Shown here one piece after another: positions 4,078 to 55,335 of a DNA stretch of 64,000 nt (its first letter is position 1; each line of letters begins with the position of its first letter). Made by a program: the position numbers and the translations under genes. The notes below the pieces were generated by a model. That model had not been told where the DNA came from, made no database searches, and saw only the letters and a program-made list of their open reading frames with translations. The stretch comes from a virus (lineage: Duplodnaviria > Caudoviricetes): positions 64,001 to 128,000 of IMG/VR virus record IMGVR_UViG_3300014697_000001; one strand, given 5' to 3'.

Positions 4078-4925
4078 ATATGTAGTAGCACTGTGACAGC
4101 ATTTAAGGAATTGAATGTTTCTGACACTCTCGCCATTACTGTCGATGTTTAGACCAGGTGCTCTGTGGCTGGCTCAACGGGTGATGAAGGCCTTACCGCC
4201 CACTTATCACTCGTTGGACCGCGGTCATAGAAGTCCTCGGGTCAAGGCAAGAGACGGTTTCTCGCAGATGGCGCGCACCTCATGCCGTTGGAGCATGGTA
4301 GGGTGGCGACCAGAACGCACCTTGAACTTAACTGACAGGATCTGGGCACTGTCCAAATGCCCCACTAAAAATTCCCTCCAAGGAGGACGATATCGTCACA
4401 CGCGGACCAGTCTTGGTATTGGTCTTCTTACTAGGACACTTGATGGGATATTCCGGCCAGATAACAGCCGGATGGTTTTCCAGTGAGCAACACTTTAGTG
4501 CACCAAACAACTCATTCTATCTCGAGACCCCGGCCATTGTGCTGGTTAAGGCAGTATTACCATACTACCATGAGATTGAACTGTACGTTGGAATTGATCG
4601 CGGTGAAGCTCCAAGTAAAGTAGTAAGTGGGCAGGTATTGAAGACGGCTCGATCTGTCGAATTGCACGGGTACTGTGGGTCCCGTAAGCATTTCTAGGTC
4701 GAGTAGCATAATTGGGCTACCACCACACTCCTCACCGATTAAGTTCGGCCATTGATGATCAGCGGATCATCCAAGTCCTACCACCCGTAGGCACCGGTAG
4801 CAAAGGTTACGGAGAAGACGGCAATGTACACAGCTCAGGTAGCCCCTGAGTGGAACCTGAGCGTTCCTTCAATTGTGGTACACCCGAGCTTCTCCAATAC
4901 TTTCCTTTATTTTTTTGTTTTCTGT
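4078..4925 (+). ncRNA. candidate large structured ncRNA (about 840 nt)
   Basis: No credible CDS; many stems with G-U pairs on + strand (4175-4187/4204-4216, 4754-4760/4765-4771, 4811-4817/4889-4895); TATGT start and T-rich end. Confidence 0.65.
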
Positions 4926-4960
4926 AATTGTGTGTCTCTTTTCTATCGAGTGCACTCACC

Positions 4961-5254
4961 ATGATGGTTTCTGTTTCTCCTGCTAATCGAGTGGCGCCCG
5001 GTCACCTCGACAACCGTGAACGCTGGGTGGCTGCCCGCGTAACCGCCTCCCACCTCAACACCTTCTTGAAGCTGATCAAGAACGCCGATCCTGAGATGTA
5101 CAGTGGTGATGAATTTGAATCGGCCAAGCACCTGATGACCCACTTCCAATCCGCCTGCGGTGTATTTATCGACGCTCTACATACCGCAACCAGTGTCGAC
5201 CAACTCATTGAGATCAACGATGAGTTCTACAAAATGGCCTGCGCCAAGTCCTGA
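4961..5254 (+). CDS. hypothetical protein
   Basis: 97-aa ORF followed by hairpin 5258-5290. Confidence 0.7.
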   Translation: MMVSVSPANRVAPGHLDNRERWVAARVTASHLNTFLKLIKNADPEMYSGDEFESAKHLMTHFQSACGVFIDALHTATSVDQLIEINDEFYKMACAKS

Positions 5255-5297
5255 CACAGAGCCTGGGGAGTTCCCCAGGCTCTTTATGCGATTCGAC

Positions 5298-5327
5298 TTT
5301 TTTTCAACCATACATGATAGCGATGAA
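5298..5327 (+). promoter_or_regulatory. putative early (virion RNAP) promoter
   Basis: TTTTTTTCAACCATACATGATAGCGATGAA; motif recurs at 9263, 26295, 36986, 54207, 55053, 55342. Confidence 0.65.
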
Positions 5328-5359
5328 TACCCTACCCAGATCTTAAGGAGATCAGTACA

Positions 5360-5527
5360 ATGAAAGCATTACTCACCGTAGTTGCGATTGTAGGTGTTTC
5401 GGCAATCTACGCCTGGAACTGTAAGGACGTCAAAGAAGTCCGCCGCCAAACAGCAGAGCTTAAGAAACGCAACGAACATGACATCGCTGAGCTGGCTAAA
5501 GTCGGCATCCATATCAAGAATTCCTAA
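5360..5527 (+). CDS. 55-aa membrane microprotein (not in ORF track)
   Basis: TCTTAAGGAG RBS; MKALLTVVAIVGVSAIYAWNCKDVKEVRRQTAELKKRNEHDIAELAKVGIHIKNS. Confidence 0.75.
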   Translation: MKALLTVVAIVGVSAIYAWNCKDVKEVRRQTAELKKRNEHDIAELAKVGIHIKNS

Positions 5528-5554
5528 CCCCCCTGTTCTTAAGGAGAACACACC

Positions 5555-6238
5555 ATGACTAAGAATATCGCAATCGGCAGCGCCATCGTTGTAGGTCTGG
5601 CAGCAGTTGCAGGCCTTGGCTGGAAGACCCTCAAGGCCCGTAAGGCTTCTAAGGTCACTGCAGCACCGTCCCCATCGGTTACCACTGTCAACACTTCCCC
5701 GAAGGAAGCTGTGGCAACCGGTGAACAGGAGAAGGTCAAATCCACCCTGTCCATTGTCAAACCTGTTGTAGCCGAACCTGTCGCTGCAGAAGAAGTTAAA
5801 GCAGTGGTTCAGGATGATGCCGTCTCCAGTGTCACAGGCACAGACGGTGAAACCATCGCTGCAGTATCTCGCATCCGGGTACCTGAAGCATCCGAAGAAC
5901 CTGCGGTCGACACCACGCCGGCGTTCTGGAGTTTCTTCTACCGCAACATCCGTCGGGAGGAGGTTGTTAACCTGACTGCACAGGACTTCACCAGCAGCAC
6001 CAAGCCCACCCTGGCTAAGGGGTATCACAAGGCCCATATCGAAGGCTTTGATGCCCCGGCTATCGTTCACGTTACCAAAGGCCATGTATCGGCAGTGGTA
6101 CATGTTGGCGGTACTGTGTTCATGGGCTTTAGCACCTCGGGTAGCCGGTTCCCTAAGGCAGTCTCGAGTGAGGCGGATATCGCTGGGACATTCCACCTCG
6201 ATGCCCGCGCCGCTAAGGACTTCCTGAACGGTCGGTGA
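5555..6238 (+). CDS. membrane-anchored early protein
   Basis: TCTTAAGGAG RBS; N-terminal hydrophobic helix followed by K/R, low-complexity linker, globular C-terminus. Confidence 0.8.
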   Translation: MTKNIAIGSAIVVGLAAVAGLGWKTLKARKASKVTAAPSPSVTTVNTSPKEAVATGEQEKVKSTLSIVKPVVAEPVAAEEVKAVVQDDAVSSVTGTDGETIAAVSRIRVPEASEEPAVDTTPAFWSFFYRNIRREEVVNLTAQDFTSSTKPTLAKGYHKAHIEGFDAPAIVHVTKGHVSAVVHVGGTVFMGFSTSGSRFPKAVSSEADIAGTFHLDARAAKDFLNGR

Positions 6239-6240
6239 GA

Positions 6241-6292
6241 CGGCATAGAGAGGGAGCGCAAGCTCCCTCTCTTAGCTGTTTCTTTTTTCTTT
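6241..6292. terminator. hairpin terminator between convergent genes
   Basis: agagagggagc/gctccctctct stem plus T tract; near-duplicate at 11952-12004. Confidence 0.8.
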
Positions 6293-6295
6293 GGT

Positions 6296-6763
6296 TTACC
6301 AGTTCATGGCGGATCTGGCAGAGGAGAGGATGACTTCTTTACGCCCCAGGTATGTCTTAAGATCAACCTGTTTACAATGGTTGATCATGGCGGCTGGAAT
6401 AATCTCCTTTGTCTTATATTCGTGTTTCATGCCATTGTGCAGGTTGTTGACAGCAACCCAGATGTCTTTGTGCCAATCCACCTTATAGAGGTAGACGGTC
6501 AAGGCTTCTATTTCCTTCAGGGTTGGAGGGACATCCTCGAAGATGAACTCCAACGTCCTGCCAGAGGACTTAAAGCGGCTCATGGCGAAGTGTTTCTCCA
6601 CCACCGAGGCTAACCCTTGCGAAATGGCTTCCTCCATCACAGCCGTTGCGTAGAGCCACTCGTTGGATTCGCTCTTATCCCACTCGACTTTAACACCCGT
6701 GTAATGGATACCGGGCTTTAGTTCGGTATGGCGATAACCAGAACCATGGTAAAGATGATGCAT
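6296..6763 (-). CDS. conserved hypothetical, possible ADP-ribosyltransferase-like fold
   Basis: N-terminal LYHGS...LKPG, WLYAT, late HEY. Confidence 0.7.
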   Translation of the reverse strand: MHHLYHGSGYRHTELKPGIHYTGVKVEWDKSESNEWLYATAVMEEAISQGLASVVEKHFAMSRFKSSGRTLEFIFEDVPPTLKEIEALTVYLYKVDWHKDIWVAVNNLHNGMKHEYKTKEIIPAAMINHCKQVDLKTYLGRKEVILSSARSAMNW

Positions 6764-6831
6764 GGTGAATTCCCTTTGTTAAATAAGAAAAAGCTCACCG
6801 ATCCTGTAGAACAGAAACGGACATCGCCCCA

Positions 6832-7362
6832 ATGAAAAAGCTGCTAGTCTTCCGAGAAGGCATGTGCCCAGATTCTCGTGAGGTGGATGATTACCTACAT
6901 GATAGTGAGGTGATCAAGGGTGATTTCATAGACCTCAACCCCGACGACGAGCGTAAATACACGAAGGGTCGAGTGGCCCTCTACGATTCGACCTGGTCGG
7001 TTGTGTTCAAAGACGATCACCTCTATGACCACTGGCACCTGGTGGGTGAAGGCACTCGACTCTATGCCTTCGATGAGGATACCTTTAAGGCCACCAACAC
7101 ATTACTCGAACCTTACCGCGAACACCTCTTACTGACCGCGGTGTTACACAAGAACAATGCAATCACGCTCATCTACCGAGCGGGTAAGGGCATGTCTCAT
7201 CTACTGGACATGCACATGTCATTTATCCTCGACAGTTTTAACGATGGAGCCTACACCTATGTCATTCCTAGTGCAGATGTGGCTGCTGCTGCTTTATCCG
7301 ATTCGAAAGCGAAGGCTGCTCAAGACACTGAGAAGGACGATAAAAGCCACCGTCCTAAATGA
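6832..7362 (+). CDS. hypothetical protein
   Basis: 176-aa ORF divergent from 6763. Confidence 0.7.
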   Translation: MKKLLVFREGMCPDSREVDDYLHDSEVIKGDFIDLNPDDERKYTKGRVALYDSTWSVVFKDDHLYDHWHLVGEGTRLYAFDEDTFKATNTLLEPYREHLLLTAVLHKNNAITLIYRAGKGMSHLLDMHMSFILDSFNDGAYTYVIPSADVAAAALSDSKAKAAQDTEKDDKSHRPK

Positions 7363-7837
7363 GACCACGTATTTTGTCTACATGGACCTGCGGGGTCATT
7401 ACGGTTCATCGTACGCATTCAGTCAATTAAAGCAAGCCACGTACGACATGCTCCTTGACATGTACAGGCGCAAGCACCTACATAACGAGTTTTATCGTCA
7501 GCAGGTGCCGCGCTGGATAGACGAGTGGTTTGAGCGGATGTCTTGTCAAGGCAGTTACGTCTATCAACCCGGTCGGGATAAGCACGTTTACCATCTACCT
7601 AAAGCCCGACCTGCGCGGCGCATTTTTCTGCTGGTGGGTGACACCGTTCTTAATCAGCTGGGCGATACACCGGTTGAACGGTTTGAACTGTCAAACATGC
7701 TCTTCGACATTCTTGGCCGAAAGGCCAGTGAGGATGTAGCCACCGTTGTATTCGCCGACGGTGATCGGATCGTTAATCTATTCAAGTTAAAAACAACTGG
7801 CCAAGTGCCATCATATGACAGACCTAATAACGTCTGA
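7157..7837 (+). CDS. hypothetical protein (true start probably a later Met)
   Basis: Fills gap up to the histone-like gene; overlaps upstream ORF. Confidence 0.6.
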   Translation: MQSRSSTERVRACLIYWTCTCHLSSTVLTMEPTPMSFLVQMWLLLLYPIRKRRLLKTLRRTIKATVLNETTYFVYMDLRGHYGSSYAFSQLKQATYDMLLDMYRRKHLHNEFYRQQVPRWIDEWFERMSCQGSYVYQPGRDKHVYHLPKARPARRIFLLVGDTVLNQLGDTPVERFELSNMLFDILGRKASEDVATVVFADGDRIVNLFKLKTTGQVPSYDRPNNV

Positions 7838-7881
7838 TGGTGTTACAAATCCATTTTAATGCACTGAAGGAAATGTCCAAC

Positions 7882-8289
7882 ATGACCACCGCTACCAAGA
7901 AAGGCACTGCCGCTAAACCGGCTACCAAGGCCCCAGCCAAGAAGCCCGCCGCTACCAAAGCAGCCCCGAAAGCCCCCGCCAAGAAGCCGGTGGCTACCAA
8001 GCCCGCCGCAGCAAAAACTGCTCGCAAGCCGGTTGCAAAGCCTGCTGCCAAAGCTCCGGCCAAGAAGCCTGCACCGAAGGTCAAAGCCACCGTCATGGCT
8101 CTGGACCTGACCGAACTCCTGAAAGCTTTCGCTGCCGGTGGTAAGTCGCCGCGTAACGTGCGCCTGCCTGGCAGCGTCGATGTGAACGTCAAGGCTGCAC
8201 TGATCGCTGAAGCCAAGCGCCTGAAGATCTCGGTCTCGGCACTGACCTCGGCAATCGTGACCCAGTACATCGCCACGCTGTCTGCCTGA
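7882..8289 (+). CDS. histone H1-like (AKP-repeat) DNA-binding protein with C-terminal ribbon-helix-helix-like domain
   Basis: KAPAKKPAATK repeats over about 70 aa, then RLPGSVDVNVKAALIAEAKRLKISVSALTSAIVTQYI. Confidence 0.8.
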   Translation: MTTATKKGTAAKPATKAPAKKPAATKAAPKAPAKKPVATKPAAAKTARKPVAKPAAKAPAKKPAPKVKATVMALDLTELLKAFAAGGKSPRNVRLPGSVDVNVKAALIAEAKRLKISVSALTSAIVTQYIATLSA

Positions 8290-8295
8290 CCAAAC

Positions 8296-8324
8296 GGGAG
8301 AGCTTCGGCTCTCCCCTTATGCCG
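8296..8324 (+). terminator. UUCG hairpin followed by TATGCCG
   Basis: gggagagc-ttcg-gctctccc. Confidence 0.75.
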
Positions 8325-8371
8325 GCTCGACGGTACCATTGTATGTCTTTATCTATCGGTGAGATTTCATT

Positions 8372-8887
8372 ATGTGGACAAGACTTATAGCAGCAGTTGG
8401 TTTGAAAGGTATACTGGTCGGTCTTCTGGTAGCGGGGGTTGCCTCCACGTTCATCTACTGGGTGAACTGGACCGTTGAGGCCAATCGGACCCTGGTAAGC
8501 AATGCAGAGACCATCAAACAACACGAAGAGACCATCAACACCCTTCGTGGCGAGATACAGCAGTACCTCCAGGAAAACCACCAGCTAGAGGAGAAGTTCT
8601 ATCAGATAGAACAATCTCAGAGTGACCTTCTCTGCGCAGCCCGTTACGGTCAACCCGTCCAGGACAGTACGGTGCAGTTACCTCTGGTCAAAGAAGTTGT
8701 GGTCTACCGGGACCGGATGAGCAAATGCCCTACGCTTGACATCAATCAGGCTGAAGTGACGGACTCACTGGGCACTGCACTACGACCGTCAAATGAGCAG
8801 ATCGCTGTAAAGGTTCTTGAGAACTCTTGGGAGGCATTCTGCATCGCCAATAAACAGGAGCATCCCTCATGCTTACCTACCCAATAA
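8372..8887 (+). CDS. inner-membrane spanin (Rz-like)
   Basis: Single N-terminal TM, coiled coil, periplasmic cysteines, followed by overlapping lipoprotein gene. Confidence 0.7.
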   Translation: MWTRLIAAVGLKGILVGLLVAGVASTFIYWVNWTVEANRTLVSNAETIKQHEETINTLRGEIQQYLQENHQLEEKFYQIEQSQSDLLCAARYGQPVQDSTVQLPLVKEVVVYRDRMSKCPTLDINQAEVTDSLGTALRPSNEQIAVKVLENSWEAFCIANKQEHPSCLPTQ

Positions 8888-9213
8888 AGGCTCACAGTAA
8901 CAACCCGTTTAACCGATTCGTGATGTTCAGTACTCCGTACTCCCCCAAGCGCCCTAAACGCAGTCGGTGGTGGCTGTTGCTACTGTTTGTGGCCGTGGTC
9001 ACCCTACCGGGGTGTACAGCCAGGTACCTGGCTGTACCTGAATGTGAGATCACCTCGCCTCCGGATGCCGACCGCTACCTGCAAGCTGTCCCAGATGAGC
9101 GTTTGATCATGATGAGCAGTGCCTACATTGCTCAGGTCAAACAAACAGCCAGCTGCAACAAGAAGATACGTCTGGTCAATGCTGGCAATAAAGCACGTGA
9201 CACCCTCGATTGA
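8869..9213 (+). CDS. outer-membrane spanin lipoprotein (Rz1-like)
   Basis: Basic region, hydrophobic stretch and lipobox LPG-C; proline-rich mature N-terminus. Confidence 0.7.
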   Translation: MLTYPIKAHSNNPFNRFVMFSTPYSPKRPKRSRWWLLLLFVAVVTLPGCTARYLAVPECEITSPPDADRYLQAVPDERLIMMSSAYIAQVKQTASCNKKIRLVNAGNKARDTLD

Positions 9214-9217
9214 CCCT

Positions 9218-9251
9218 ATAGAGAGGAGCCAACGGGCTCCTCTCTATGCCG
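9218..9251 (+). terminator. hairpin ending in TATGCCG
   Basis: atagagaggagcc/ggctcctctctat 13-bp stem. Confidence 0.75.
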
Positions 9252-9262
9252 TCTCGATTCCA

Positions 9263-9293
9263 ATTTATTACAACGATACATGATAGCGGTGAA
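9263..9293 (+). promoter_or_regulatory. putative early promoter
   Basis: CAACGATACATGATAGCGGTGAA, nearly identical to 5298-5327. Confidence 0.65.
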
Positions 9294-9324
9294 TGCATCA
9301 CCGAGTTCTTAAGGAGAACTGATC

Positions 9325-9495
9325 ATGAACGTCAAAGCCATTTCTGTCATCGCTATTGCCGCTGCCGCTATCGGTTACTGCAGTTACAGGCAGTATAAGA
9401 AGTTCAAAAGCGAGACCCCTCTTTCGGCGGAACAAGCCGCTGAAGTTCAACGCATCCTTGACCCGGTTGCCGAGATTGTCAAACCCAGTCGTTAA
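9325..9495 (+). CDS. 56-aa membrane microprotein (not in ORF track)
   Basis: TCTTAAGGAG RBS; MNVKAISVIAIAAAAIGYCSYRQYKKFKSETPLSAEQAAEVQRILDPVAEIVKPSR. Confidence 0.75.
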   Translation: MNVKAISVIAIAAAAIGYCSYRQYKKFKSETPLSAEQAAEVQRILDPVAEIVKPSR

Positions 9496-9526
9496 CTACC
9501 CCCCAGCGTTCTAAGGAGAACGTGCC

Positions 9527-9799
9527 ATGAACGTGGCTGCTGTATACACCGGACACTCCAGTGAAAGTGTCCTAAAAGTCTACCGGGAGATTCAACGACT
9601 CCCACTGACCGAAGCCCATGCCGAACAGATCGAAGCCATCAAGGCACATGTCGATGTCCTGGTGACACAAGCCAGTCAGTGCATCGATCCTGTGGTTGGT
9701 GATAAGTTGTTAGCGTTGGCCCATAACCGTGTTCTTGAGATTGAACGTCTTATCGAGGAGAATGACCGTGTCCAATATTTCGGTAGTAGCTGCATTTAA
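9527..9799 (+). CDS. hypothetical early protein
   Basis: TAAGGAG RBS, helical 90-aa ORF. Confidence 0.75.
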   Translation: MNVAAVYTGHSSESVLKVYREIQRLPLTEAHAEQIEAIKAHVDVLVTQASQCIDPVVGDKLLALAHNRVLEIERLIEENDRVQYFGSSCI

Positions 9800-10106
9800 A
9801 CTCACCATTGGCGTGTGGGTTGATGACATGTTCTTCATGCAAGACTACAATGGTGAAGGATATGTACCCGACCGGATCGAGATTCATAATGACGCCGGTG
9901 AAGCAGTGGTGAAGGTCATTGACGAGAACGATCAAGTCATCTACACCAAGCCCACTCATTATTCGTTCGACAAGATAGTCACCTACGCCGAGGCACTGCA
10001 CGAGCTACCTATCTTTACAAAGCTGGACGAACCCGAACCAAGCCATCAAGCCTGTGTCGAGACTACAGACCAAGTCATCACCCTACGCGCCCCATCGCGC
10101 ACCTGA
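9762..10106 (+). CDS. hypothetical early protein
   Basis: In operon; start uncertain. Confidence 0.65.
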   Translation: MTVSNISVVAAFKLTIGVWVDDMFFMQDYNGEGYVPDRIEIHNDAGEAVVKVIDENDQVIYTKPTHYSFDKIVTYAEALHELPIFTKLDEPEPSHQACVETTDQVITLRAPSRT

Positions 10107-10125
10107 CCCCGATCTTAAGGAGATC

Positions 10126-10800
10126 ATGACCATGAACACTTATTCTTTCGTCATCAGCCACGATGACCTGCTCGAAGCCCGTATCAACACCACCGAGCCT
10201 TTCTCCGGCCTCTTTATCACCAAACTGCCAAGCTTTGATACCGAGCTTGGATATGAAGTCCGTGGAACCGAACTGATCGTCAAGTACGAAGAAGTCGATG
10301 GTGAACGCCTCCTACTTACCACAGGGAGCTACTACGCACAAGAGACTCCGTTACCAACTATCTACGGAATCGTCCTGAAATTACACGGCTTACGTACCCT
10401 GCGGGTTGGGAACAATCCAGTTGTGGTGGCAGATGTACATGTCAACAGTCCGGATGACTTCTACGTCACTCGCCGTAATGCCGGCGGGTTAGTCGAGAAC
10501 CATCCCGTCAAAGGCGATGTGTTCACCTACAAGGAAGGCTTTGGTTACACCACTCTCACCGAATCGGCCATTGATGATCTATACCGCAAGTATGTTCATC
10601 TGGGACATGGTGCCTTTATCCCAGGATGCTATCTGGTCCGCTTTGGCTCGGTAGTCGATAACGGCTCGGTGCTCTACGTGCCACTTGCATGGTTGTTCCA
10701 CGACCCTCTGGTGGCCCAGGCCCATTTCCCGACCATCGATACCGACCTCTGGAAGATGAAAGCCGATATGTTTTCCCTTAACTACGATGGGGGTGAGTGA
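10126..10800 (+). CDS. hypothetical early protein
   Basis: TCTTAAGGAG RBS before ATG 10126/10132. Confidence 0.8.
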   Translation: MTMNTYSFVISHDDLLEARINTTEPFSGLFITKLPSFDTELGYEVRGTELIVKYEEVDGERLLLTTGSYYAQETPLPTIYGIVLKLHGLRTLRVGNNPVVVADVHVNSPDDFYVTRRNAGGLVENHPVKGDVFTYKEGFGYTTLTESAIDDLYRKYVHLGHGAFIPGCYLVRFGSVVDNGSVLYVPLAWLFHDPLVAQAHFPTIDTDLWKMKADMFSLNYDGGE

Positions 10801-11087
10801 TGAACGTCTACCATGAACCCAATGGCCTTCTCTTCCGCAAGTTGGAAGGGGAGGCCGGGATCAGCTATGTCGCCATCGATCCAGACGAGGTGGATGGCAA
10901 CCTTACAGGCCTGCTTGTCCGTCACGGCTCGCCCGAATCGGGCTGTGGCTATTATCCCGCTAGTCTGGTAATGGCTGACTCTGAACTGCGTGAAAAAGTA
11001 GCGGCTGTGAAAGGTCGACGGAAACCCAGTGAACGCTGGATAGACCAGATTAAAAACCGCCTAATCGAATCGGGCATCCTTCATTGA
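10797..11087 (+). CDS. hypothetical protein
   Basis: Overlaps upstream stop. Confidence 0.7.
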   Translation: MMNVYHEPNGLLFRKLEGEAGISYVAIDPDEVDGNLTGLLVRHGSPESGCGYYPASLVMADSELREKVAAVKGRRKPSERWIDQIKNRLIESGILH

Positions 11088-11102
11088 TACAGGAGCAACA
11101 CC

Positions 11103-11624
11103 ATGCCGTACGCCATTTACACCATCGAAAGTAAGGAACCAAGTTATCTCATGGCGAATCCATTCACCATGAACTCGGAACCGATCGTCGACATGCGTTT
11201 CATCACCATGGCAAAAGACCCCTCTGGAGTCATGGCGGATCTCGTCAAGTTCATCAGCGACATGATCGACAACCGGCTCCGCGATGGTTTTGATGACGAT
11301 CCAAGCGAGATCGACAATGTTGGGGAACTCACCATGGTCATGCATGATCGGTTCATGACCCTGACGTCAATCCTGGCCGGGATCAAACTGACGCCTGTGT
11401 ATGTCCTCGATGATAACGAGGCGGCCATGGTGGATCAGGCCATTGAGCTGCTGGCCAAGTGTGAGGCGATCAATCGAGATCCCTCAGCAACCGACCGTCG
11501 CGTGTATGGTGGTAAAATACGCGACCTCAGAAGAGCCATGTTGGTGAGGCTGTCCAACTCCTCACTAGACCCTTCCGAACACGCTAACGAAAACCTTTCC
11601 GCTGCAATCCAACAACTGCTGTAA
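11103..11624 (+). CDS. hypothetical protein
   Basis: AGGAGCAACACCATG start. Confidence 0.8.
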   Translation: MPYAIYTIESKEPSYLMANPFTMNSEPIVDMRFITMAKDPSGVMADLVKFISDMIDNRLRDGFDDDPSEIDNVGELTMVMHDRFMTLTSILAGIKLTPVYVLDDNEAAMVDQAIELLAKCEAINRDPSATDRRVYGGKIRDLRRAMLVRLSNSSLDPSEHANENLSAAIQQLL

Positions 11625-11647
11625 CCCATAACCCAAGGAGCAACACC

Positions 11648-11944
11648 ATGCCGTATAAAGCCATTGCTAAAACCATCATCGAAGCCATCGAAGCCCGTGT
11701 CAAGGCTAACATCGCGGTCGGTAATTTCGGTACCATCAACTTGACCATGTCCGATAGCGAACTGAAGAACCGCATGGGGCTCGAGCGCCTGAAGACCATT
11801 ACCCGCAAGCGCCTGATCGCCAGCCTCTGCGCTGCCGATTATATCGTTAGTGATGATGGTGAGGAGATCACCATCGAAGTAGATGTAGCCTCGCGCTACA
11901 CCGATTTCGAGAGCCTTGAGGATCTCCTCGAATCGCTCGAATAA
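11648..11944 (+). CDS. hypothetical protein
   Basis: Same AGGAGCAACACCATGCCGTA start context as 11103. Confidence 0.8.
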   Translation: MPYKAIAKTIIEAIEARVKANIAVGNFGTINLTMSDSELKNRMGLERLKTITRKRLIASLCAADYIVSDDGEEITIEVDVASRYTDFESLEDLLESLE

Positions 11945-11951
11945 CCGGTGA

Positions 11952-12004
11952 CGGCATAGGGAGGGAGCTTGCGCTCCCTCCCTTAGCTGTTTCTTTTTTC
12001 TTTG
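11952..12004. terminator. hairpin terminator between convergent genes
   Basis: agggagggagc/gctccctccct stem plus T tract. Confidence 0.8.
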
Positions 12005-15000
12005 TTACTTGATTGAACGATCAATCCATTTGATGATGGCTTTAGCTGTGGGGTAGACTTCGATCATTTCGGTGAGGCTGAGCGTCCACATCTCAGGCTC
12101 GCGTTGGTGATAAAAGCGCTCCCAGTAGGCTTCATCGAGTTTCCGATCGGTGACGTACAGCCAGTCATTGAACTCGTTACCATCCTTGAAATCGAGCCAA
12201 GGGATAAATCCAATGGATGGGTCCCATTTCTTATCAGTTAGCATTGCTTTGACAAGCTGAGCTGCTTCTAACACCTGCGTGGCATTTAGTGCAGGGAGTG
12301 TTTCAGCAGCTACTAACTCCGGGACAGTTCGAACAACAGGCGTACCTTTAACAACCTCTACCTTAAGGTTCTTCAGAGACGTTCCTTCGAACTTCGGAAA
12401 GCGCTTCATGGGATCGGGGAGAGCGTCGAACTCGTTAACTGATTTTCGAACGAAATCCAGAATAGACTCGGTGTCTCCGGCGCTCTTCTCCCAGTGCTTC
12501 ACAGTGCGGTTGTGAATTTCCTGGACCTTGTCGTTCAATGGCCCAAGCACACCCATCCATGCCTTGGTGTGACGAGCGACTCTACCGTGAGCCTTTATCA
12601 CATTGCCCAGTGGACTGTCCCCTAACTTACCATCCAACATGAAGTACGTCGAAATATCCTTCGCAGGCACATCCCCTTCAACATATTTCTGCTTGTCAAG
12701 CCAGGTTCGACTCAGATAGGTTTTGTTCATCTCCTCCATGAACCGCTTGAGTTTATTAGCATGTTCGTATCTGAGGTATTCGCTATCGTCGTCCTTGTAC
12801 TTGGGTTTCTTGGGTCTAAGCAAGCCACCTAAGAGATCGGACAACCCTTCAAACGACACGGTGTCCTCGCCACCATCCCTTACGTCGATTGGCAGTTCGA
12901 GTTTCACCCTGTCGATAAATCGCTCAGCATCGCCCAGGGTAGCCGCTGGATTCTCCACCAAAGACTCCAGCGATGCCTCTAGATCATCCGGAGCACTGAC
13001 CCCGAGGATAGCCTCGACTTGAGATTTACTCCATGCCATGATGTCCTTAGAGCGCGTCGAGATGTTCGGCTCTGCACCGGTATCCAGATACGTCTCCCAG
13101 ACATGGCAGCGATGCTTCTGTCCGATTCGGTCAACACGGGCAATGGTCTGCGTCCGTTCGTAATCACGGAACGGGGCATTGGTGAACACAACTGTGTTTG
13201 CCATGGTCAACGGTACAGCTGTCGACAGGGACTTGAAGGTTGCCACCAGAGGATTGATGTCGTCGTCATTCTCAAACCGCTTGACGATGTTCGGCAAGTC
13301 CTTGTTGGTCTCCCCGTACACCAGCAGGGGTTTATACCCCGCCTTCGTCAGCAGGCTCTCAAGCTCCTTGACCACTTCCACGTAACTGGTAAAGATCACC
13401 GTTTTGGTGGTCGCGTTGTCGATGATCTCATCCAAGGGCATGTTGGGTAGCATGTCCAGGTGACACTGGATGCGCAGACGCCCCAATACCTGAGACAACG
13501 CCTCACCCATGACCCTGAGGTCAACGTACTTGATGATGGCACGGACATTCAAGAACGGTTTGCGGTACCGTTCAGGTAGCGAGGGAACAATGGTCTTCAG
13601 CTCGTACCGGTTACAGTACATCACCAGATCCTTCATGGTAACCGGATCATACCCCTTGCGAAGTTGAGCCACGCCACGTCGGTATTCAGAGAACGCTGCG
13701 GAGGCCATTCCGCCCTTTACAGTCTGCCCGTGAAGCTCCATGCAAGTCGCGTAGAGTTTTTCATACTCCGGCATCCCCTTTCGGTAGAAGGCCAAACGCT
13801 CATCGATAAACTTGCTCATCTTCTCGCGGACACTGGTCAGGGTATATTCCGATGAGTTGTTCATCGGTACCTTGATCTCATGGTAATCCACACCCGGAGT
13901 CTCGATGTCAGCTTTCACCACTTTGAAGGAGACAATACCGATTCGGTTAGCCAAGATCTCAATCGCCCGCTTAGCCTCCTTGCCAAATATCTTACGGAAG
14001 GACCCTTGTACTTCAGGAGTGAAGTCATTACAGATCGTCGCCAGCAGGGTGATGGCTTCAGAACCCATGGCCTTGAACGGCGTACCCGATGCATGGATCA
14101 CATCTCGGGCCTTGAGGGTCTGGCAGAGCTGGATCAGCAGGTTGGTCCGGTTGGACTGCTCGTTGAAGTTGTGCGATTCGTCGATCCCTACATAGACCTT
14201 GCCGAAGCTGCCTTTGTTAGCCCCGACGAAGGCCAAGAACTTCTCCAGATAATCGTAATGGACGATGTAGTACTTCTTGCCCAGAGTCAATTCCTCTCCA
14301 CTCAGGCTGTGCCAGTACTCTGGCGTCTGCTTGAAGAGTACCTTGATGGTTTTGACCCAGACGTCAAACACAGAGTTCTTCGGCACAACGAGCACTGAGG
14401 TGTCAGCCCCTAAGCAATGGGCCGTGGCGTATTGCGAGATCGTGTTATGGGTGACAATGAAGTCATCGGTGATGTACAGGTGTTTCGGATGATCCACCCT
14501 GATACATTGCGCCTCTTCCTGACCGACGAGCTTGATTGACTTAACACGTAGTTTGAGCGTTGCAGCATACTGTCCATCGTCTTTACAACGTTCCTGTTTG
14601 CGTTTTAACCTGAACAGTTCGGATGGTTTGGAGTGACGAATGTTGACTTGATATGCAGGGCGGCCATTTCGCGTCTCGCCGTTGTAAGTATAAGTCGGTT
14701 TCCGAACAGCGATCCTGGCGATACCACCCAGACTGCGAACCAGATACTGCACACCTTCCGCCAATTGCTTACTACTGGAGCAAAATGAGACGGTCCCTTG
14801 CTGATCCGAAGTTCCATCGGTGTCCATGAGGCCTTGAAGAAGACTCAGGCGTTGTGTCCGGGAACCCTGGAGATACTCACTAGGAATATGTTTTTCGTGA
14901 GAATACTTACCAAATAATCCAAGTTCTCTAACTATCCGTCTCAGTACATTGTCGCCGCGCTCAACACCCACAATGCTGTAGTCGATTTCAGTTATACGTT

Positions 15001-15946
15001 TGAATTCCACGGTGTCTGGTAAGGCATTACGGACATTCTCCAGTACCTCGGCATCTGGAGTACAAAAGGCAACATGGTATCGAAGACCACCGTCGCCCAA
15101 TAACGCACCCAGCACATACGGGTCAAGTGGGTATTGTACCTCTGTACCTTCATCTGGAGTGATGAGAGGAACGTACAGTCGATTCCCACCGCGAGATTCT
15201 AAAATCTCTTTCATGCGCAACGTCGATCGGACATCCCACTGGCGGGAAACATTACTCTGCCTTCCGTCGTGACATTCCCAGAGATGCTCACCACACGCCC
15301 TGGTTTTCCGCCCATCGACGAACTCAATTTCATAGATGTCTTTTACACCTTGAGGATAAACACCCGACACATTGACGGTCGTACCGTCCGGCGCAATCAC
15401 CTGACTCCCCACGCGCATGTCACCCATAGTGGCCCAACCACCAGGTACCTTGATTTTAGCGTCAAGAGGCTGAGCCTTACCCGATCCTGCTGCCGCGTCC
15501 ATCAACATTCCATTGAGCGAGTATTCAAACGTAGCTCGGTCGTAATGCTGTAAAAAGTTAATTTGATGGGGAAATAATGTGACTGTCAAGTCCTTCAGTG
15601 CCGACATGTTAAGCCTGGAGGTGAAATCACCCAGACCTATGTTGCGCAGCCACGTGCCAGCAATCAACTCATCGCGTACACGCTGTAGCGTCCGCCGACC
15701 CACATACGTCCGACGGGATTGGATCAGTTGATCCAACATGTACAGAACTTCGATGGCGTAGAACTTGGGAAACTTTACGCCACTTCGCGAAATAGCAGTG
15801 AACATGTTGTTGTTCAACTTGCTAGTTTTCCAGTGATTGTATACGTCTTTAGAGAACCTGAGCCCAGGTATTCCATTGACTATAATGTGAGAGCCGGTCT
15901 CCTTCACGGAGATCAACCCTAACAGACGCGAGAAATTGGCGTACAT
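12005..15946 (-). CDS. SF2/SNF2-like helicase of phiKZ-like phages, intein-containing, with C-terminal extension
   Basis: Walker A DAAAGSGK|T split by intein, DESH, SGTP, QTIARVDRIGQ. Confidence 0.9.
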   Translation of the reverse strand: MYANFSRLLGLISVKETGSHIIVNGIPGLRFSKDVYNHWKTSKLNNNMFTAISRSGVKFPKFYAIEVLYMLDQLIQSRRTYVGRRTLQRVRDELIAGTWLRNIGLGDFTSRLNMSALKDLTVTLFPHQINFLQHYDRATFEYSLNGMLMDAAAGSGKAQPLDAKIKVPGGWATMGDMRVGSQVIAPDGTTVNVSGVYPQGVKDIYEIEFVDGRKTRACGEHLWECHDGRQSNVSRQWDVRSTLRMKEILESRGGNRLYVPLITPDEGTEVQYPLDPYVLGALLGDGGLRYHVAFCTPDAEVLENVRNALPDTVEFKRITEIDYSIVGVERGDNVLRRIVRELGLFGKYSHEKHIPSEYLQGSRTQRLSLLQGLMDTDGTSDQQGTVSFCSSSKQLAEGVQYLVRSLGGIARIAVRKPTYTYNGETRNGRPAYQVNIRHSKPSELFRLKRKQERCKDDGQYAATLKLRVKSIKLVGQEEAQCIRVDHPKHLYITDDFIVTHNTISQYATAHCLGADTSVLVVPKNSVFDVWVKTIKVLFKQTPEYWHSLSGEELTLGKKYYIVHYDYLEKFLAFVGANKGSFGKVYVGIDESHNFNEQSNRTNLLIQLCQTLKARDVIHASGTPFKAMGSEAITLLATICNDFTPEVQGSFRKIFGKEAKRAIEILANRIGIVSFKVVKADIETPGVDYHEIKVPMNNSSEYTLTSVREKMSKFIDERLAFYRKGMPEYEKLYATCMELHGQTVKGGMASAAFSEYRRGVAQLRKGYDPVTMKDLVMYCNRYELKTIVPSLPERYRKPFLNVRAIIKYVDLRVMGEALSQVLGRLRIQCHLDMLPNMPLDEIIDNATTKTVIFTSYVEVVKELESLLTKAGYKPLLVYGETNKDLPNIVKRFENDDDINPLVATFKSLSTAVPLTMANTVVFTNAPFRDYERTQTIARVDRIGQKHRCHVWETYLDTGAEPNISTRSKDIMAWSKSQVEAILGVSAPDDLEASLESLVENPAATLGDAERFIDRVKLELPIDVRDGGEDTVSFEGLSDLLGGLLRPKKPKYKDDDSEYLRYEHANKLKRFMEEMNKTYLSRTWLDKQKYVEGDVPAKDISTYFMLDGKLGDSPLGNVIKAHGRVARHTKAWMGVLGPLNDKVQEIHNRTVKHWEKSAGDTESILDFVRKSVNEFDALPDPMKRFPKFEGTSLKNLKVEVVKGTPVVRTVPELVAAETLPALNATQVLEAAQLVKAMLTDKKWDPSIGFIPWLDFKDGNEFNDWLYVTDRKLDEAYWERFYHQREPEMWTLSLTEMIEVYPTAKAIIKWIDRSIK
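14444..15475 (-). mobile_element. class 3 intein (344 aa) with LAGLIDADG homing endonuclease
   Basis: Starts AQPLDAKI, block B CGEHLW, block F AQCIRV, block G FIVTHN followed by Thr; LGALLGDG and LQGLMDTDG motifs. Confidence 0.92.
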
Positions 15947-15995
15947 TTGAAAATATTCCTTTTAACTAGGAGTATAATGGAAGAGGATTCATAGA

Positions 15996-17570
15996 ATGAG
16001 CCACACCGCAAGCAAACCGACTGCAGCCGTCATGCTTAACGAAGCCCAGAACTACCGCACCAGCCTGGAAAGCCTGATGAGTGTAGGGCGTGCCCTGCTC
16101 AGCAGTCCGTCGATGGAAGATGCCTCTGCAACCGCCTTCCAGGTGTTGGCCGAGAATGTTCTTGAGCAAGCAGACCACCAACAGGACCTCGTAGCCGTTG
16201 ACGGTGTTGAAGAACCACAGGTCCGGGTCGAGCTGATCATGCAGGATGTCCTGACCCCTCGTCTGACCGAAGTCGAGCAGATCGAAGACGCTCTGCAAGC
16301 CAAGGCCGATGCAGAAGAACCTGTAGCTTTCCATACCAGCGAACGCGCCACTCACGCCTCGCAGGAAGAACTGATCCTGTCGATGGAGATGTTGGCTATC
16401 CATCGTAACTACATTGGTGCCATTCGCTCGGTCCTATCGATGGAATCCTTCCCGGTAGCGGCCGCCACACCTCTGCTTCAAAGCGTCACCCGCTGCTTTG
16501 GCTCGTATGCTGACAAGCTCGGTGTGTCGATGGAATCGTTGGAACAGACGCAAGTCCTCGGTGAAATGAGCGATGCCGTTGATCGCATCGAACAGTTGGT
16601 CACCAAGGCCCATGAGTCTGTGCTTGAGCAAGCTGAAGCCATTCGTGCAGACGCTCGAGCCGTCGGCAGCGATGAAACGGACAAGCTGGGTGACCTGATC
16701 GAAAAGCATCGCCAGGACAACCCGGTCGGTATCCAGTTCGAGGAAGGCACCTCTGTCAACAGCATCCAGTCGGATGCCGAACCCAAAGACGACGAAGAGC
16801 AAGAAGAAACGCTCGACGAGTCCGAGTCTGACGGTGAACAGGACGGTGCTATGGACGACACTTCCATGACCGATGACGAAATGGAACTCGTCCCGAACGA
16901 GGATGATCAGGAACAAGAGGAAGAAGCACCTCTTGAAGAAGACCCCGATCTCGAAGAGGCGCCTGAAGAAGAGGAAGAAACCGACCTCGACGACGAGCAG
17001 GAAGAAGAACTCCCTGAAGAAGTCGAAGAAGTCGAAGAAGAGGAGCTTCCCGAAGAGGAGGAAGAGCTCCCTGAGGAAGAAGAGGAAGGTGACGACCTCG
17101 ATAACGAAGAGGAAGAAGTAGCCAACGCCGACACGATCGACGAAGACGCTATTGAAACCGAAGTCGAAGAGGAAGAGGAGCCTGAATCCGAAGAGCAGGA
17201 AGAAGAGGAAGAAACTGCTGAAGAAGACGAAGACGACCTTGAAGAGGAGGAGGAAGACGGTGAAACCAATTCAAACGAATCTCTGGTCGAACCCATGGTC
17301 TGGGATGCCGACGCGTACGGCGAACAAGCCGCCGAAGTCCGTGGTATCCACACACAGATCCTTCGCTTCCTTGGCGATCACGGTATGCTCACCCCTGAAG
17401 GTCAGGCTATCGCTGAAAACGACCAAGCGGTCGATTTCGTGTTCTCCACTGACCTGATGACCCCGCATGCTGCTGAAGTATTGGCACGTCATTATCAGAC
17501 GTGGATCGGTGCCTCGCTGCGTGATGGGCAAGCCAATCTTCTCTCACTCGGTATCCTCCTTGGTGTGTAA
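15996..17570 (+). CDS. very acidic putative internal head/scaffold protein
   Basis: Repeated S-L/M-E motifs in N-terminal part, long E/D tract. Confidence 0.8.
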   Translation: MSHTASKPTAAVMLNEAQNYRTSLESLMSVGRALLSSPSMEDASATAFQVLAENVLEQADHQQDLVAVDGVEEPQVRVELIMQDVLTPRLTEVEQIEDALQAKADAEEPVAFHTSERATHASQEELILSMEMLAIHRNYIGAIRSVLSMESFPVAAATPLLQSVTRCFGSYADKLGVSMESLEQTQVLGEMSDAVDRIEQLVTKAHESVLEQAEAIRADARAVGSDETDKLGDLIEKHRQDNPVGIQFEEGTSVNSIQSDAEPKDDEEQEETLDESESDGEQDGAMDDTSMTDDEMELVPNEDDQEQEEEAPLEEDPDLEEAPEEEEETDLDDEQEEELPEEVEEVEEEELPEEEEELPEEEEEGDDLDNEEEEVANADTIDEDAIETEVEEEEEPESEEQEEEEETAEEDEDDLEEEEEDGETNSNESLVEPMVWDADAYGEQAAEVRGIHTQILRFLGDHGMLTPEGQAIAENDQAVDFVFSTDLMTPHAAEVLARHYQTWIGASLRDGQANLLSLGILLGV

Positions 17571-17601
17571 CTGAAATACTTGTACTGTTTTTACGGTATA
17601 G

Positions 17602-18035: not shown

Positions 18036-18080
18036 TGTGATTTCAAAATAACCCAGGGTAGGGTATGACAATCTTCGGAG

Positions 18081-53264: not shown

Positions 53265-53896
53265 TGGATCATGTCCATTATGTTAGTGGAAGGGAATGCT
53301 CGATCATCACCCCAGATAATTCGGATGCCGGCTCTACCGCCTTCACCAGAACTACCCTTGTCTCTCCAGATACCACCACCGCCACCAAAGTCGCCACCGT
53401 CACGTGAGAAGGTGCCGGTGGCACCCGTCAGCTGGAAAGTCTTCAGGTCTATACCAAAGCTGTTACGATCGGCACCAACCAAGCCGACGTTACCACCGGA
53501 ATCCATCTGGCTGTAATTACTGGACAGGCCCTGGGTGCCATCACCGCCCTTGACTACGGCAGACAACGGCGAGGCTGCTGTGAAGCCAAATGCTGAGGTG
53601 GTGTTGATCGCCGCTTTAGTATTCCAGTTGGTCGGAGGGACCATCAACTGGTATGCCTGACCAGGGACCACTGGGATGTTGTTGATGTACCTAACATTGG
53701 CGCCATCGCCTGTGAAGTTGTTACGGATGGAACCGCAACCACCAGCACCGACCAGGGCTACACAGACTTCATGGACATTGGCAGGACAGATCCAGGTAAA
53801 GGTACCGGGTTGATCAAAGAGTATCTGACCAGGTAACGGGGGAGGTAACCCTTTACGAATTCGATTCGATACAGCTACAAGAATACTGAGAGCCAT
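53261..53896 (-). CDS. glycine-rich fibre-tip-like protein
   Basis: PGTFTW..P..V..V....VGAGG, IPVVPGQ.Y, GGGGG, G..G.IRIIWG. Confidence 0.8.
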   Translation of the reverse strand: MALSILVAVSNRIRKGLPPPLPGQILFDQPGTFTWICPANVHEVCVALVGAGGCGSIRNNFTGDGANVRYINNIPVVPGQAYQLMVPPTNWNTKAAINTTSAFGFTAASPLSAVVKGGDGTQGLSSNYSQMDSGGNVGLVGADRNSFGIDLKTFQLTGATGTFSRDGGDFGGGGGIWRDKGSSGEGGRAGIRIIWGDDRAFPSTNIMDMIQ

Positions 53897-53950
53897 TGTT
53901 AATTCCAGGTATTGATTAGAGGAATGGGTTACTCATAAGATTTCGTAATT

Positions 53951-54152
53951 TAATCCTGCCTTGAGTAATCATCTGAATAAATTCAAAAGACTATAAAGAG
54001 CGAGGTTGTAAGGAACGAAGTGACTGGAGACGGAGCGCCTGCGGAGGAGAGCAACGACGACATCCCTAGTGCTTTTCTAAGCTGACCGAAGGTCCGACTG
54101 ACTCGGGACGAAGTCCCTTACCGAGTAAAATAATCCATACTTGAGTAATCAT
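53951..54152. repeat. 22-bp direct repeats 180 bp apart enclosing GAA-loop hairpins
   Basis: taatcctgccttgagtaatcat (53951) and taatccatacttgagtaatcat (54131). Confidence 0.8.
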
Positions 54153-54206
54153 ATCCAGATAACGGATAGGACCTCAAGTCAGCGTTACTTTTATGCTGCA
54201 TCGATT

Positions 54207-54242
54207 AGAAATAAGCCCGACCCTACATGATAAACCCGATAT
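54207..54242 (+). promoter_or_regulatory. putative early promoter
   Basis: GACCCTACATGATA. Confidence 0.55.
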
Positions 54243-54270
54243 CACATACCCATGTAAGAAGGAGTACACC

Positions 54271-54996
54271 ATGCAAGTAATGTCCCGTGCTATTGATTCG
54301 GACATGATGACCCCTGAACTCTTTAGGGATATCCTGGAACTGTTTCATGGAGGGTATCAGGTAAGAGACAGTGGAGGCCATCAACAACATCGAACTCCGA
54401 CGGTGGTCATGTTTCGTGGCAAGGTCTCTGAAGAAGATGGCTTTGTCCTGATGGCAATTGAAGCAGGCCTTGAGAGTAGTCTCAGACCTATTGTCAAGCG
54501 TCAAGGCGATGCGGGCATGTACTGGATGGAGATTGACGAACCCCATAACCTGAATCGCTCTCAGACGACTGCGTTCCACCCTTACGAGCAGACCACCGCT
54601 GCTGAGGATGCCATGCATTGGGCAGACATCCTGTACCGGTCAGGATTGATCGATGGGTACGTAGGGCTGCACGATTATGAGATTGTCTACCCAGAACGCT
54701 TGATGGGGGATACCATCAGTCGTCACTGCATGGAAGAGGTCTTTGATGAACGTGTGCTGGGTAAAGCCAGTCGCTTTGACCTGTACTTTAAGGATGAGGA
54801 CACAGGGGCGTTCTATCCGGTCGATGATTGCACCATCTGGGGCGGAGCGATACTTGAACATGGCCACTACCATTACCTGGGTGAATACATTCGCGTACTG
54901 GAGGTCAATAACCTGATCACCGACCACCGTAAGATCCTGGCACGGACGTTGCGTAAGGCATTGCGTTACCATTACATCACCACAGCTCAAAGCTGA
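54271..54996 (+). CDS. hypothetical early protein
   Basis: AAGGAG RBS before ATG 54271. Confidence 0.8.
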   Translation: MQVMSRAIDSDMMTPELFRDILELFHGGYQVRDSGGHQQHRTPTVVMFRGKVSEEDGFVLMAIEAGLESSLRPIVKRQGDAGMYWMEIDEPHNLNRSQTTAFHPYEQTTAAEDAMHWADILYRSGLIDGYVGLHDYEIVYPERLMGDTISRHCMEEVFDERVLGKASRFDLYFKDEDTGAFYPVDDCTIWGGAILEHGHYHYLGEYIRVLEVNNLITDHRKILARTLRKALRYHYITTAQS

Positions 54997-55162
54997 GGTG
55001 ACGGAGGGGGTGATAAAGCCCCCTTTTCTTTTGTGCTGGTCGATTCGATTCGAATTAAAGTCAGCCCTACATCACCTAGGTGAAGTGGTCACTTCTCTTG
55101 TTAGAATTCGTTGTGCCTTCGAAGTCAGTTCAGTCAAAATAGTAAAAAATAACTAGGTCGGT

Positions 55163-55335
55163 AGTATGTTATAGGGAGGATAGGTGCCACAGTGCCTCCG
55201 GGGTAGGATCAGGCGAGCGATCGGCAATGGCCATCGCCCCTGACTACCCACTATGCCGTCTCACCGAAATTCCGATAGATCAGTCGTTAGGCCTGTGCCT
55301 GATAAACTGATCTATCATCCCTTTATTTTTTTGAT
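55163..55335 (+). ncRNA. candidate small structured RNA (about 170 nt)
   Basis: Three stem-loops, TATGT start, CTTTATTTTTTTG end. Confidence 0.55.

Follow-up and report, generated by a model that had tools for sequence, protein, structure and literature searches.

We analysed 64,000 nucleotides (nt) of viral DNA, bases 64,001-128,000 of a 250,515-bp IMG/VR viral contig (G000; 52.8% G+C), and refer to this whole stretch as the window. Three dispersed loci on its + strand, here called locus 1, locus 2 and locus 3 (Table 1), had been proposed to produce structured phage RNAs. The solid result of our analysis is a new family of large structured non-coding RNA (ncRNA) at locus 2 and a family of folded RNA bearing an open reading frame (ORF) at locus 1. 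Locus 3 appears to be of another kind, a promoter-plus-leader module.

Matches to PHROG families in the window, namely a phiKZ-type major head protein, a virion structural protein and a polymerase subunit, mark the source as a jumbo phage of the phiKZ-like kind. Among cultured phages, Pseudomonas phage pPa_SNUABM_DT01 (MW735835.1; DT01 below) is nearest, with a major capsid protein that is 80% identical; capsid identity was below 60% for every other cultured phage. DT01 encodes virion and non-virion multisubunit RNA polymerases of the phiKZ type and only two tRNAs, and the paper on this phage describes no RNA genes beyond these two (PMC8541153). Searching GenBank phages by blastn at distant sensitivity returned zero matches for loci 1, 2 and 3. 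Relatives were recovered by protein-anchored and pattern scans, which gave ten IMG/VR contigs (G001-G010, most of them 250-277 kb); the DT01 loci were placed through weak but collinear matches, and further contigs were taken from NCBI, JGI and Logan. All three loci occur together in G003, G006 and G007-G010. Loci 1 and 2 are present in DT01, where sequence search found no match to locus 3, and G005 holds locus 2 with only traces of locus 1 and no match to locus 3. A search for relatives seeded with the protein upstream of locus 3 found nothing. Across the whole window, Rfam gave no match at gathering thresholds, and at permissive thresholds (E up to 10) the three loci gave chance-level matches only (E at least 0.05, far below gathering scores); the Rfam 15 families covered include GOLLD, ROOL, 6S, RsmY/Z, RNase P, tmRNA, group I/II introns and HEARO. 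ARAGORN detected no tRNA or tmRNA in the window. All three loci are real, conserved and highly folded RNA units, each separately bracketed, in a clade of jumbo phages that resemble DT01.

Locus 2 is a large structured non-coding RNA

Eleven locus 2 sequences were aligned over ~430-460 nt (alignment A9) and a consensus structure was computed with RNAalifold. The consensus comprises 71 pairs in 12 helices, with 96.0% of cells paired versus 38-53% when the 3' partners were slid by 1-3 columns, and 29 pairs had changed on both sides versus 4-8 when slid. None of 500 column shuffles reached the observed values in four of the five measures, and the fold scored z = -7.7 against dinucleotide shuffles. 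About one third of the columns are invariant despite the turnover of helices by compensatory change. In addition to the core elements given in Table 1, the invariant blocks include a AUGCGCUU.A.UGCGUA hairpin, CC.CUCCU and much of the 21-bp terminal stem; of the 21 pairs in this stem, helix 12, 10 are invariant and 8 show compensatory change.

No conserved ORF was found in locus 2 among the relatives: the open frames of one genome do not match those of another in frame or extent, and the G005 copy has no + strand open frame of at least 45 codons. A ~97% relative in DNA run X1, used for its indel pattern only, carries eight insertions or deletions (indels) of 1-2 nt within 17670-17915, and the indels in the flanking genes measure 3 or 9 nt. 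A covariance model of the conserved core (R1, built from alignment A11) retrieved a copy on which it had not been trained, in the distant genome G002 (65 bits, E about 1e-15). This genome keeps the order acidic protein gene, locus 2 RNA and DUF488 gene with an upstream protein only 32% identical, and in its copy both the first hairpin and the terminal stem (CCUCUAGUG/CACUAGGGG) have undergone compensated changes. The R1 search of Noxifer, phiKZ and 201phi2-1 found nothing, and an exact-pattern scan of metagenome contigs placed the core in 11 contigs, all of them jumbo-sized or fragments. Locus 2 is a bona fide ~430-nt structured non-coding RNA of a new family.

Upstream of locus 2, GTATAGTATGT is kept in G001, G003, G004, DT01 and G006, the relatives with an aligned promoter region; the corresponding region reads TATAGTGTGT in G005 and CATTATATGTAGGA in the distant G002. 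At the other end, the T-run that follows the terminal hairpin is degenerate or absent in DT01 and G005. The RNA lies between the gene of a 524-amino-acid (aa) protein with a very acidic C-terminus (15996-17570) and that of a DUF488-N3a protein of ParB/Srx fold (18081-18452; L113:1180-1960), and the same gene pair flanks it in every relative whose flanks were read, G002 included. The product of the downstream gene matches Pfam PF22751 (DUF488-N3a; E 4.6e-8), and this gene has an AAATAA(C/T)-N11-TAT(G/A) motif of its own, 3' of the locus 2 hairpin, that is kept in relatives. The literature on DUF488 gave a link to the ParB-CTPase fold only and none to RNA. A functional link between the locus 2 RNA and its flanking proteins is possible on this arrangement.

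As to function, the locus 2 RNA would act in trans as a folded partner-binding RNA, most likely as a protein-binding scaffold. We put this role forward tentatively, as one among several possible functions, because many unpaired blocks are invariant, because the sequence of the terminal stem is more conserved than termination would require, and because the RNA keeps its place within one gene pair. The main alternative is a sponge, in which the C-rich unpaired motifs (ACCCCC, CACUCCUC) would bind Shine-Dalgarno-like sequences; activity as a ribozyme is possible but unsupported.

Locus 1 is a folded RNA with a conserved reading frame

The locus 1 family comprises 10 genomes or contigs in two subfamilies that are only ~41% identical to each other. 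Subfamily A consists of G000, G003 and G006 together with L080, L081 and L083, the last three obtained via protein look-ups; subfamily B consists of DT01 and L077-L079. A search with the 5' 20-mer (Table 1) led to four more contigs of ~276 kb. Common to both subfamilies are this 20-mer, the hairpin CCUCAYGC.UAAGGCGCRUGG, CUCYAAGGAG, AAGGUUACGG and a 3' end of CCCCAAGACUU followed by a T-run. The consensus of the six subfamily A sequences has 221 pairs, with 92.9% of cells paired versus 35-40% when slid, and 57 of the pairs show compensatory change versus 9-13 when slid. The 5' 20-mer differs by one base in L081 and L083 and has diverged in L080. It is predicted to pair with an invariant AAGGTTACGG near 4813-4822; both sides scarcely vary, and hence this pairing is without support from covariation. 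Upstream, GTAGTT.GTTTTTAC-N15-TATGTAG is kept in G003, G006, L081 and L083. That locus 1 is under a constrained RNA fold is very probable.

The context of the cassette differs between genomes. In G003 it stands among different neighbour genes with its promoter-like region and T-rich end kept, and its 5' quarter has diverged. The complete genome G004, which has direct terminal repeats, retains only the 3' multibranch domain and the T-run. This remnant (L005:5240-5400, matching window 4789-4917) now stands after a small ORF. As G004 kept that domain alone, in this position, the 3' domain can presumably serve as a portable end. A first MAFFT alignment of locus 1 with G003 and G004 was misleading, with extra genes between the anchor gene and the cassette. 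We also considered that the locus 1 core, 88% identical in G003 and absent from G004, is a mobile insert, and dropped this idea because G004 is a deletion retaining the 3' domain and the whole cassette is held by G003, G006 and others.

Parts of locus 1 were found in twenty sequencing-run rows. Three wastewater runs labelled 'METAGENOMIC RNA-Seq' yielded Logan contigs of 150-314 nt with 0-6 mismatches to 4441-4849; these runs are rated as probably DNA, and they gave no cover of locus 2. The core was also seen, at lower word share, in sludge, farm, hydrocarbon and freshwater metagenomes, and by these matches appears widespread in the environment.

The initial annotation had treated locus 1 as free of ORFs, and this did not hold: a conserved frame of ~100 codons lies within it (Table 1). 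The frame is open, with AAGGAG and ATC kept, in 10 of 10 sequences, and none of the ten has an in-frame ATG, GTG or TTG at a usable distance from the Shine-Dalgarno sequence (window 4380-4394; for example L079:3643 and L081:2950). The ORF apparently has a conserved non-canonical AUC start, which is unusual if so. In subfamily A, the other two frames contain 4-9 stops, and gap columns number 1 of 307 in the ORF, 41 of 336 in the 5' part and 33 of 239 in the 3' part. In subfamily B, the gap runs inside the ORF are all of 3 or 6 nt, and those outside are of 1, 2, 5, 8 nt and so on. Because the in-frame pattern of these subfamily B indels, all multiples of three, is otherwise hard to explain, the ORF appears to be under coding selection. 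The same segment is also part of the fold, with 97 consensus pairs inside the ORF, 18 of them compensatory (subfamily A). Judged by eye on the criteria for Sec signal peptides (basic n-region, hydrophobic core and A-x-A-like cleavage motif), the N-termini of subfamily B resemble such peptides (IRSLRGAAVLALLTLSVALSVQA|E, ..SAQA| and ..ANA|); the N-terminus of subfamily A is a hydrophobic helix, less canonical as a signal peptide.

In our reading, locus 1 is a structured mRNA or has a dual function as RNA and message, and is not a pure ncRNA, and on the pattern of indels we lean moderately towards the ORF being translated. Translation would most likely start at the conserved AUC behind the strong Shine-Dalgarno sequence. 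Since the fold spans the reading frame, the structure would probably govern translation or stability, gating or stabilising the expression of a small membrane or secreted protein, or else give the RNA a second function. In DT01, the sole coding sequence annotated in the interval is PA10_00292 (77 aa, hypothetical; L051:1127-1360, equal to MW735835.1 249926-250159). It is probably spurious and lies where the locus 1-type RNA is variable, in the 5' part, and the conserved ORF downstream (L051:1401-1727) is unannotated and missing from the record, a point of consequence for annotation.

Locus 3 resembles a stand-alone leader module

The promoter-like motif of locus 3 and its spacing recur in G003, G004, G006 and G007-G010. 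The start conserved in these relatives, T(A/G)T(A/G)GGAG, corresponds to window 55170-55177, and TATG is absent there in G003, G004 and G006; judged by spacing, the start in the window would be TATAGG (55170-55175). The conserved parts of the module are the promoter-like GGTAAAAAATA(A/C)C-N15/16-T(A/G)T(A/G)GGAG, a first hairpin GGAGAAGGUACC...UCUCC, and a long hairpin with the core GCGAU.GGCAAU.GCCAUCGC, followed by CUAUGCCG. The fold scored z = -4.9 against dinucleotide shuffles, and compensated changes between copies were seen on reading the sequences.

In G003 (L023) and G004 (L025:1500-1800) the module is present as a tandem of three copies that each have a promoter-like motif: the first heads a homolog of the 267-aa gene, the second ends in its own terminator and the third heads a small ORF. 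It heads small ORFs in G006 and G007-G010 as well, and ends in a terminator hairpin and T-run in G000 and G001. At position 211,776 of G000 the same promoter and first hairpin precede a 657-aa gene. Locus 3 is a free-standing copy of a promoter-plus-leader module whose copies elsewhere mostly head protein genes. It would yield a short leader RNA, which may compete with leader-bearing mRNAs for a shared factor.

Start and end signals of the three units

The strings on which the initial annotation had based a common design are present where it placed them, on the + strand in all three cases: ctaTATGTag at 4076-4085, tagTATGTc at 17599-17607 and tagTATGTt at 55162-55170 at the starts, and CTTTATTT with a T-run after a long stem at 4905-4917, 18012-18029 and 55321-55333 at the ends. 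On the + strand of the whole 250.5-kb genome CTTTATTT occurs at three sites only, which are the three loci, each time in the same context. The count itself matches chance, with ~2.7 copies per strand expected from base composition, and the shared context is the notable part. As a common end signal, CTTTATTT stands for all three G000 loci and falls for the relatives of locus 2, where it is not conserved: these read CATTGTTATTTT or CTCTGGTTATGCTTTT in its place, and G005 is without any T-run. The proposal of TATGT as a common start likewise survives in part. TATG is present and conserved at loci 1 and 2; at locus 3 the conserved motif is TATAGG, as the start kept in the relatives indicates. Two types of upstream element were distinguished, TTTTTAC...TATGTAG at loci 1 and 2, with TTTTTAC standing 7-15 nt before TATGTAG, and GTAAAAAATAAC-N15/16-TATAGG at locus 3. 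AAAAATAAC is carried by locus 3 and by two mRNA promoters.

In phiKZ, late promoters carry TATG with G as +1 and middle promoters carry AAanTTACc near -24 (PMC4666361), so that the earlier description of TATG as a late-promoter feature at the start site agrees with the published consensus. By this analogy TATG is a reasonable candidate for a late-type start of loci 1 and 2, and G was chosen as the putative +1 of locus 1 by analogy to phiKZ only. Neither the start of locus 1 (+ strand) nor that of locus 2 was called as a sigma-70-like promoter by a simple scan. Each unit is bracketed by promoter-like and terminator-like signals of its own. Transcription of the units, the polymerase used, its timing and every function discussed here are what we infer from the sequence.

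Other genomic signals and a fourth folded unit

The CUAUGCCGUCUC that follows the long hairpin of locus 3 belongs to a signal found generally between genes, in which TATG(C/T)CG comes after a GC hairpin. TATGCCG has 48 copies in the genome, of which 30 are intergenic, versus ~14% of the genome being intergenic DNA. GC-rich hairpins directly before TATGCCG or TATGTCG are widespread, for example at 9240-9262, 8315-8335 and 55200-55262. This combination may flank terminators, mark late start sites or do both. The commonest promoter-like class, TTCGATTCGAA...TTTTTCAACnnTACATgATAGcgGTGA, has ~13 copies, all on the + strand, and is unlike the starts of the three RNA units. Written as TTCGATTC(G/C)AA..TTTTTCAACnnTACAT(G/A)ATAGcgGTGA, it is seen at 5290-5330, 9255-9295, 55335-55375 and ~10 further places, often directly after a terminator.

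Antisense targets were sought as 12-mers complementary to each RNA across the whole genome, and no convincing target near gene starts was obtained; the excess of 12-mers for locus 3 came from a repeated intergenic signal, CTATGCCGTCTC, in both orientations. The idea of an origin or primer RNA was also rejected, as cumulative GC skew shows only a local dip that tracks a minus-strand helicase gene.

A fourth folded unit lies on the + strand at 57197-57627 (426 nt, z = -12.9). It is a chain of near-perfect hairpins ending in a GC hairpin and T-run, and holds a 108-codon ORF (57250-57576) with a Shine-Dalgarno sequence and no Pfam or PHROG family. No match to this unit was found in 10 related genomes, and it may be a strain-specific insertion.

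Table 1. Features of the three RNA loci in the window (positions count from its first base)
Feature	Position	Strand	Description
Locus 1, promoter-like region	4057-4082	+	TTTTTAC 4057-4063, 15 nt, TATG 4079-4082
Locus 1, 5' 20-mer TATGTAGTAGCACTGTGACA	4079-4098	+	Same in 7 aligned sequences (G000, G003, G006, DT01, L077-L079) and in L076
Locus 1, predicted transcript	4082-4916	+	~835 nt, highly structured; putative structured mRNA or dual-function RNA
Locus 1, conserved ~100-codon ORF	4392-4697	+	Invariant ATC 5-9 nt past AAGGAG; hydrophobic, signal-peptide-like N-terminus
Locus 1, 3' multibranch domain and T-rich tail	4799-4917	+	Stems with compensatory changes
Locus 2, promoter-like region	17588-17605	+	TTTTTAC, then GGTATAGTATG
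Locus 2, predicted transcript	17605-18030	+	~430-nt structured non-coding RNA
Locus 2, conserved core (model R1)	17750-17900	+	UUCGUUGCC, loop GAACU..UCGUGAUA, GUAAACGAUG, CCGGCU
Locus 2, terminal 21-bp hairpin, then U-rich tail	17952-18029	+	Helix 12, near-invariant
Promoter-like motif and gene after locus 2	18046-18452	+	AAAATAAC-N11-TATG; DUF488-N3a protein
Locus 3, promoter-like region	55142-55177	+	GTAAAAAATAAC, 16 nt, TATAGGGAGG; TATG 55165-55168 falls in the spacer
Locus 3, predicted transcript	55170-55333	+	~165 nt: hairpin 1, long hairpin 55200-55249 (core GCGAUCGGCAAUGGCCAUCGC), CUAUGCCGUCUC 55251-55262, terminator hairpin 55274-55316, T-run

Weighing the readings

The loci probably represent three different kinds of RNA unit that share only the general transcription signals of the phage. 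The part of the initial annotation that saw structured stand-alone units was borne out by the conserved folds, by the signals of each unit and by covariation at loci 1 and 2, and the loci are kept in relatives with many compensatory pair changes. The part that joined them into one common system was not. In that proposal the non-virion RNA polymerase transcribes all three as stand-alone late units, and the resulting ncRNAs serve as sponges, decoys or packaged RNAs. Their common strand, their structure, the TATG-type starts and T-rich ends speak for it, as do the agreement of TATG, with G as +1, with the phiKZ late consensus and the joint presence of the trio in G003, G006 and G007-G010. We nevertheless consider it quite improbable, for the units have no sequence or fold in common, the upstream elements of loci 1 and 2 are unlike that of locus 3, and the start kept in the relatives of locus 3 is TATAGG instead of TATG. 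The ORF of locus 1 appears to be under coding selection, and the locus 3 module is a leader that mostly heads ORFs. The distribution also argues against a single system, with G004 lacking most of locus 1 and no match to locus 3 in G005 or, by sequence search, in DT01.

It is likewise unlikely that the loci exist only within neighbouring mRNAs, acting in cis as long structured leaders, trailers or attenuators, and not as separate RNAs. The locus 3 module does form the 5' leader of ORFs in most relatives, and locus 2 always stands before the DUF488 gene, even in G002; with ends that do not form canonical terminators, and with no T-run in G005, read-through is plausible. On the other side, the DUF488 gene has its own conserved promoter-like motif past the locus 2 hairpin, the promoter-like region and the end of locus 1 are retained among different neighbours, and locus 3 in G000 has a terminator hairpin followed by a separate promoter of the common class. 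Moreover, a plain attenuator would not usually have a 430-nt leader in which 12 covarying helices are combined with invariant loops. We judge the units to be independent because locus 1 sits among other genes in G003 and the DUF488 gene has a promoter-like motif of its own. That the loci are functionless, as decaying genes, remnants of mobile elements or chance clusters of GC-rich hairpins, is scarcely credible. The fold of locus 1 as a whole unit is marginal (z only -1.9 against dinucleotide shuffles), this locus is present, absent or partial among close genomes, and the strongly folded 57197-57627 occurs in no relative; yet compensatory changes at loci 1 and 2 far exceed the controls, and covariation largely refutes this reading. 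In G003 the locus 1 core is 88% identical versus 73% at the DNA level for the neighbouring gene, and the gene order around locus 2 persists where identity of the flanking protein is as low as 32%.

Several observations weigh against the reading of three kinds of unit as we have set it out. A simple terminator scan of 3500-18500 found no canonical intrinsic terminator (GC-rich hairpin with a T-run within 0-2 nt) at 4917 or 18029; at the ends of loci 1 and 2 the T-run lies several nt beyond the stem, and the loops of the terminal stems are long or branched. Genes downstream of locus 2 or 3 may be reached by read-through. Locus 1 seems to be dispensable in G004, where it is largely deleted. Its ORF in subfamily A shows no excess of variation at third positions (variable columns per codon position 35/32/36); in subfamily B there is a weak order of third over first over second (for example 38/25/49), and structure running through the ORF may mask a third-position signal. 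AUC is a weak start codon in bacteria. The predicted product has no Pfam or PHROG family, its AlphaFold2 model is poor (predicted local distance difference test score, pLDDT, 47.6) with an N-terminal helix only, and the hydrophobic character of the N-terminus could in part simply reflect the pyrimidine-rich strand of a long helix.

We continue to favour three different kinds of unit. A bolder combination of functions has a small chance of being correct: locus 2 would be the RNA subunit of an unseen phage ribonucleoprotein or ribozyme needed in infection, maybe together with the 524-aa or the DUF488 protein, and locus 1 would truly have a dual function, its fold gating translation from the non-canonical AUC start.

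Significance and comparison with known systems

Large conserved structured RNAs are rare and their functions have been hard-won, and to our knowledge very few are known from virulent phages. Loci 1 and 2 occur in a cultured P. aeruginosa phage, DT01, in which both regions are essentially unannotated, so that they are directly testable. In MW735835.1 the locus 1-type region lies at about 249,880-250,790 and locus 2 at about 262,320-262,790, with predicted RNAs of ~870 and ~450 nt; silencing by antisense oligomers is reported for phiKZ (bioRxiv 10.1101/2024.07.31.605949). Locus 1 would offer a natural example of an ORF, apparently with a conserved AUC start, that runs through helices showing covariation, and this bears on how phages tune translation. 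In the portions available to us, the transcript-mapping literature on phiKZ and 201phi2-1 yielded no report of a 430- or 835-nt RNA, and the literature on phiKZ-like phages yielded none of the size of locus 1 or 2.

Locus 2 and the RNA of locus 1 resemble GOLLD, ROOL, raiA and OLE in being hundreds of nt long and phage-borne, with many covarying helices and invariant unpaired blocks. They differ from these RNAs in matching no Rfam model up to E 10 and in a distribution which, as found here, is one clade of jumbo phages; in addition, there are no tRNA genes near the loci. Staphylococcus aureus RNAIII (hld) and SgrS (SgrT) are dual-function RNAs. As in these, a small conserved ORF would lie within the heavily folded RNA of locus 1, but this ORF is larger (~100 codons), has an apparent AUC start and carries compensatory helices through its coding part.

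The likeness to phiKZ promoters consists in TATG at the proposed starts of loci 1 and 2 and in an A-rich ...TAAC or TTTTTAC ~12-25 nt upstream. The differences are that this phage is only distantly related, that the spacing is 7-15 nt at loci 1 and 2, and that the relatives of locus 3 carry TATAGG. The small RNAs (sRNAs) mapped in phiKZ and 201phi2-1 by differential RNA sequencing (dRNA-seq) and ONT-cappable-seq are shorter than 250 nt and come from other genera, and R1 retrieves nothing from either phage. For 201phi2-1, short RNAs derived from leaders are reported, produced where a promoter is closely followed by a terminator (PMC11512511); locus 3 looks like a member of the same class of sRNAs derived from 5' untranslated regions.

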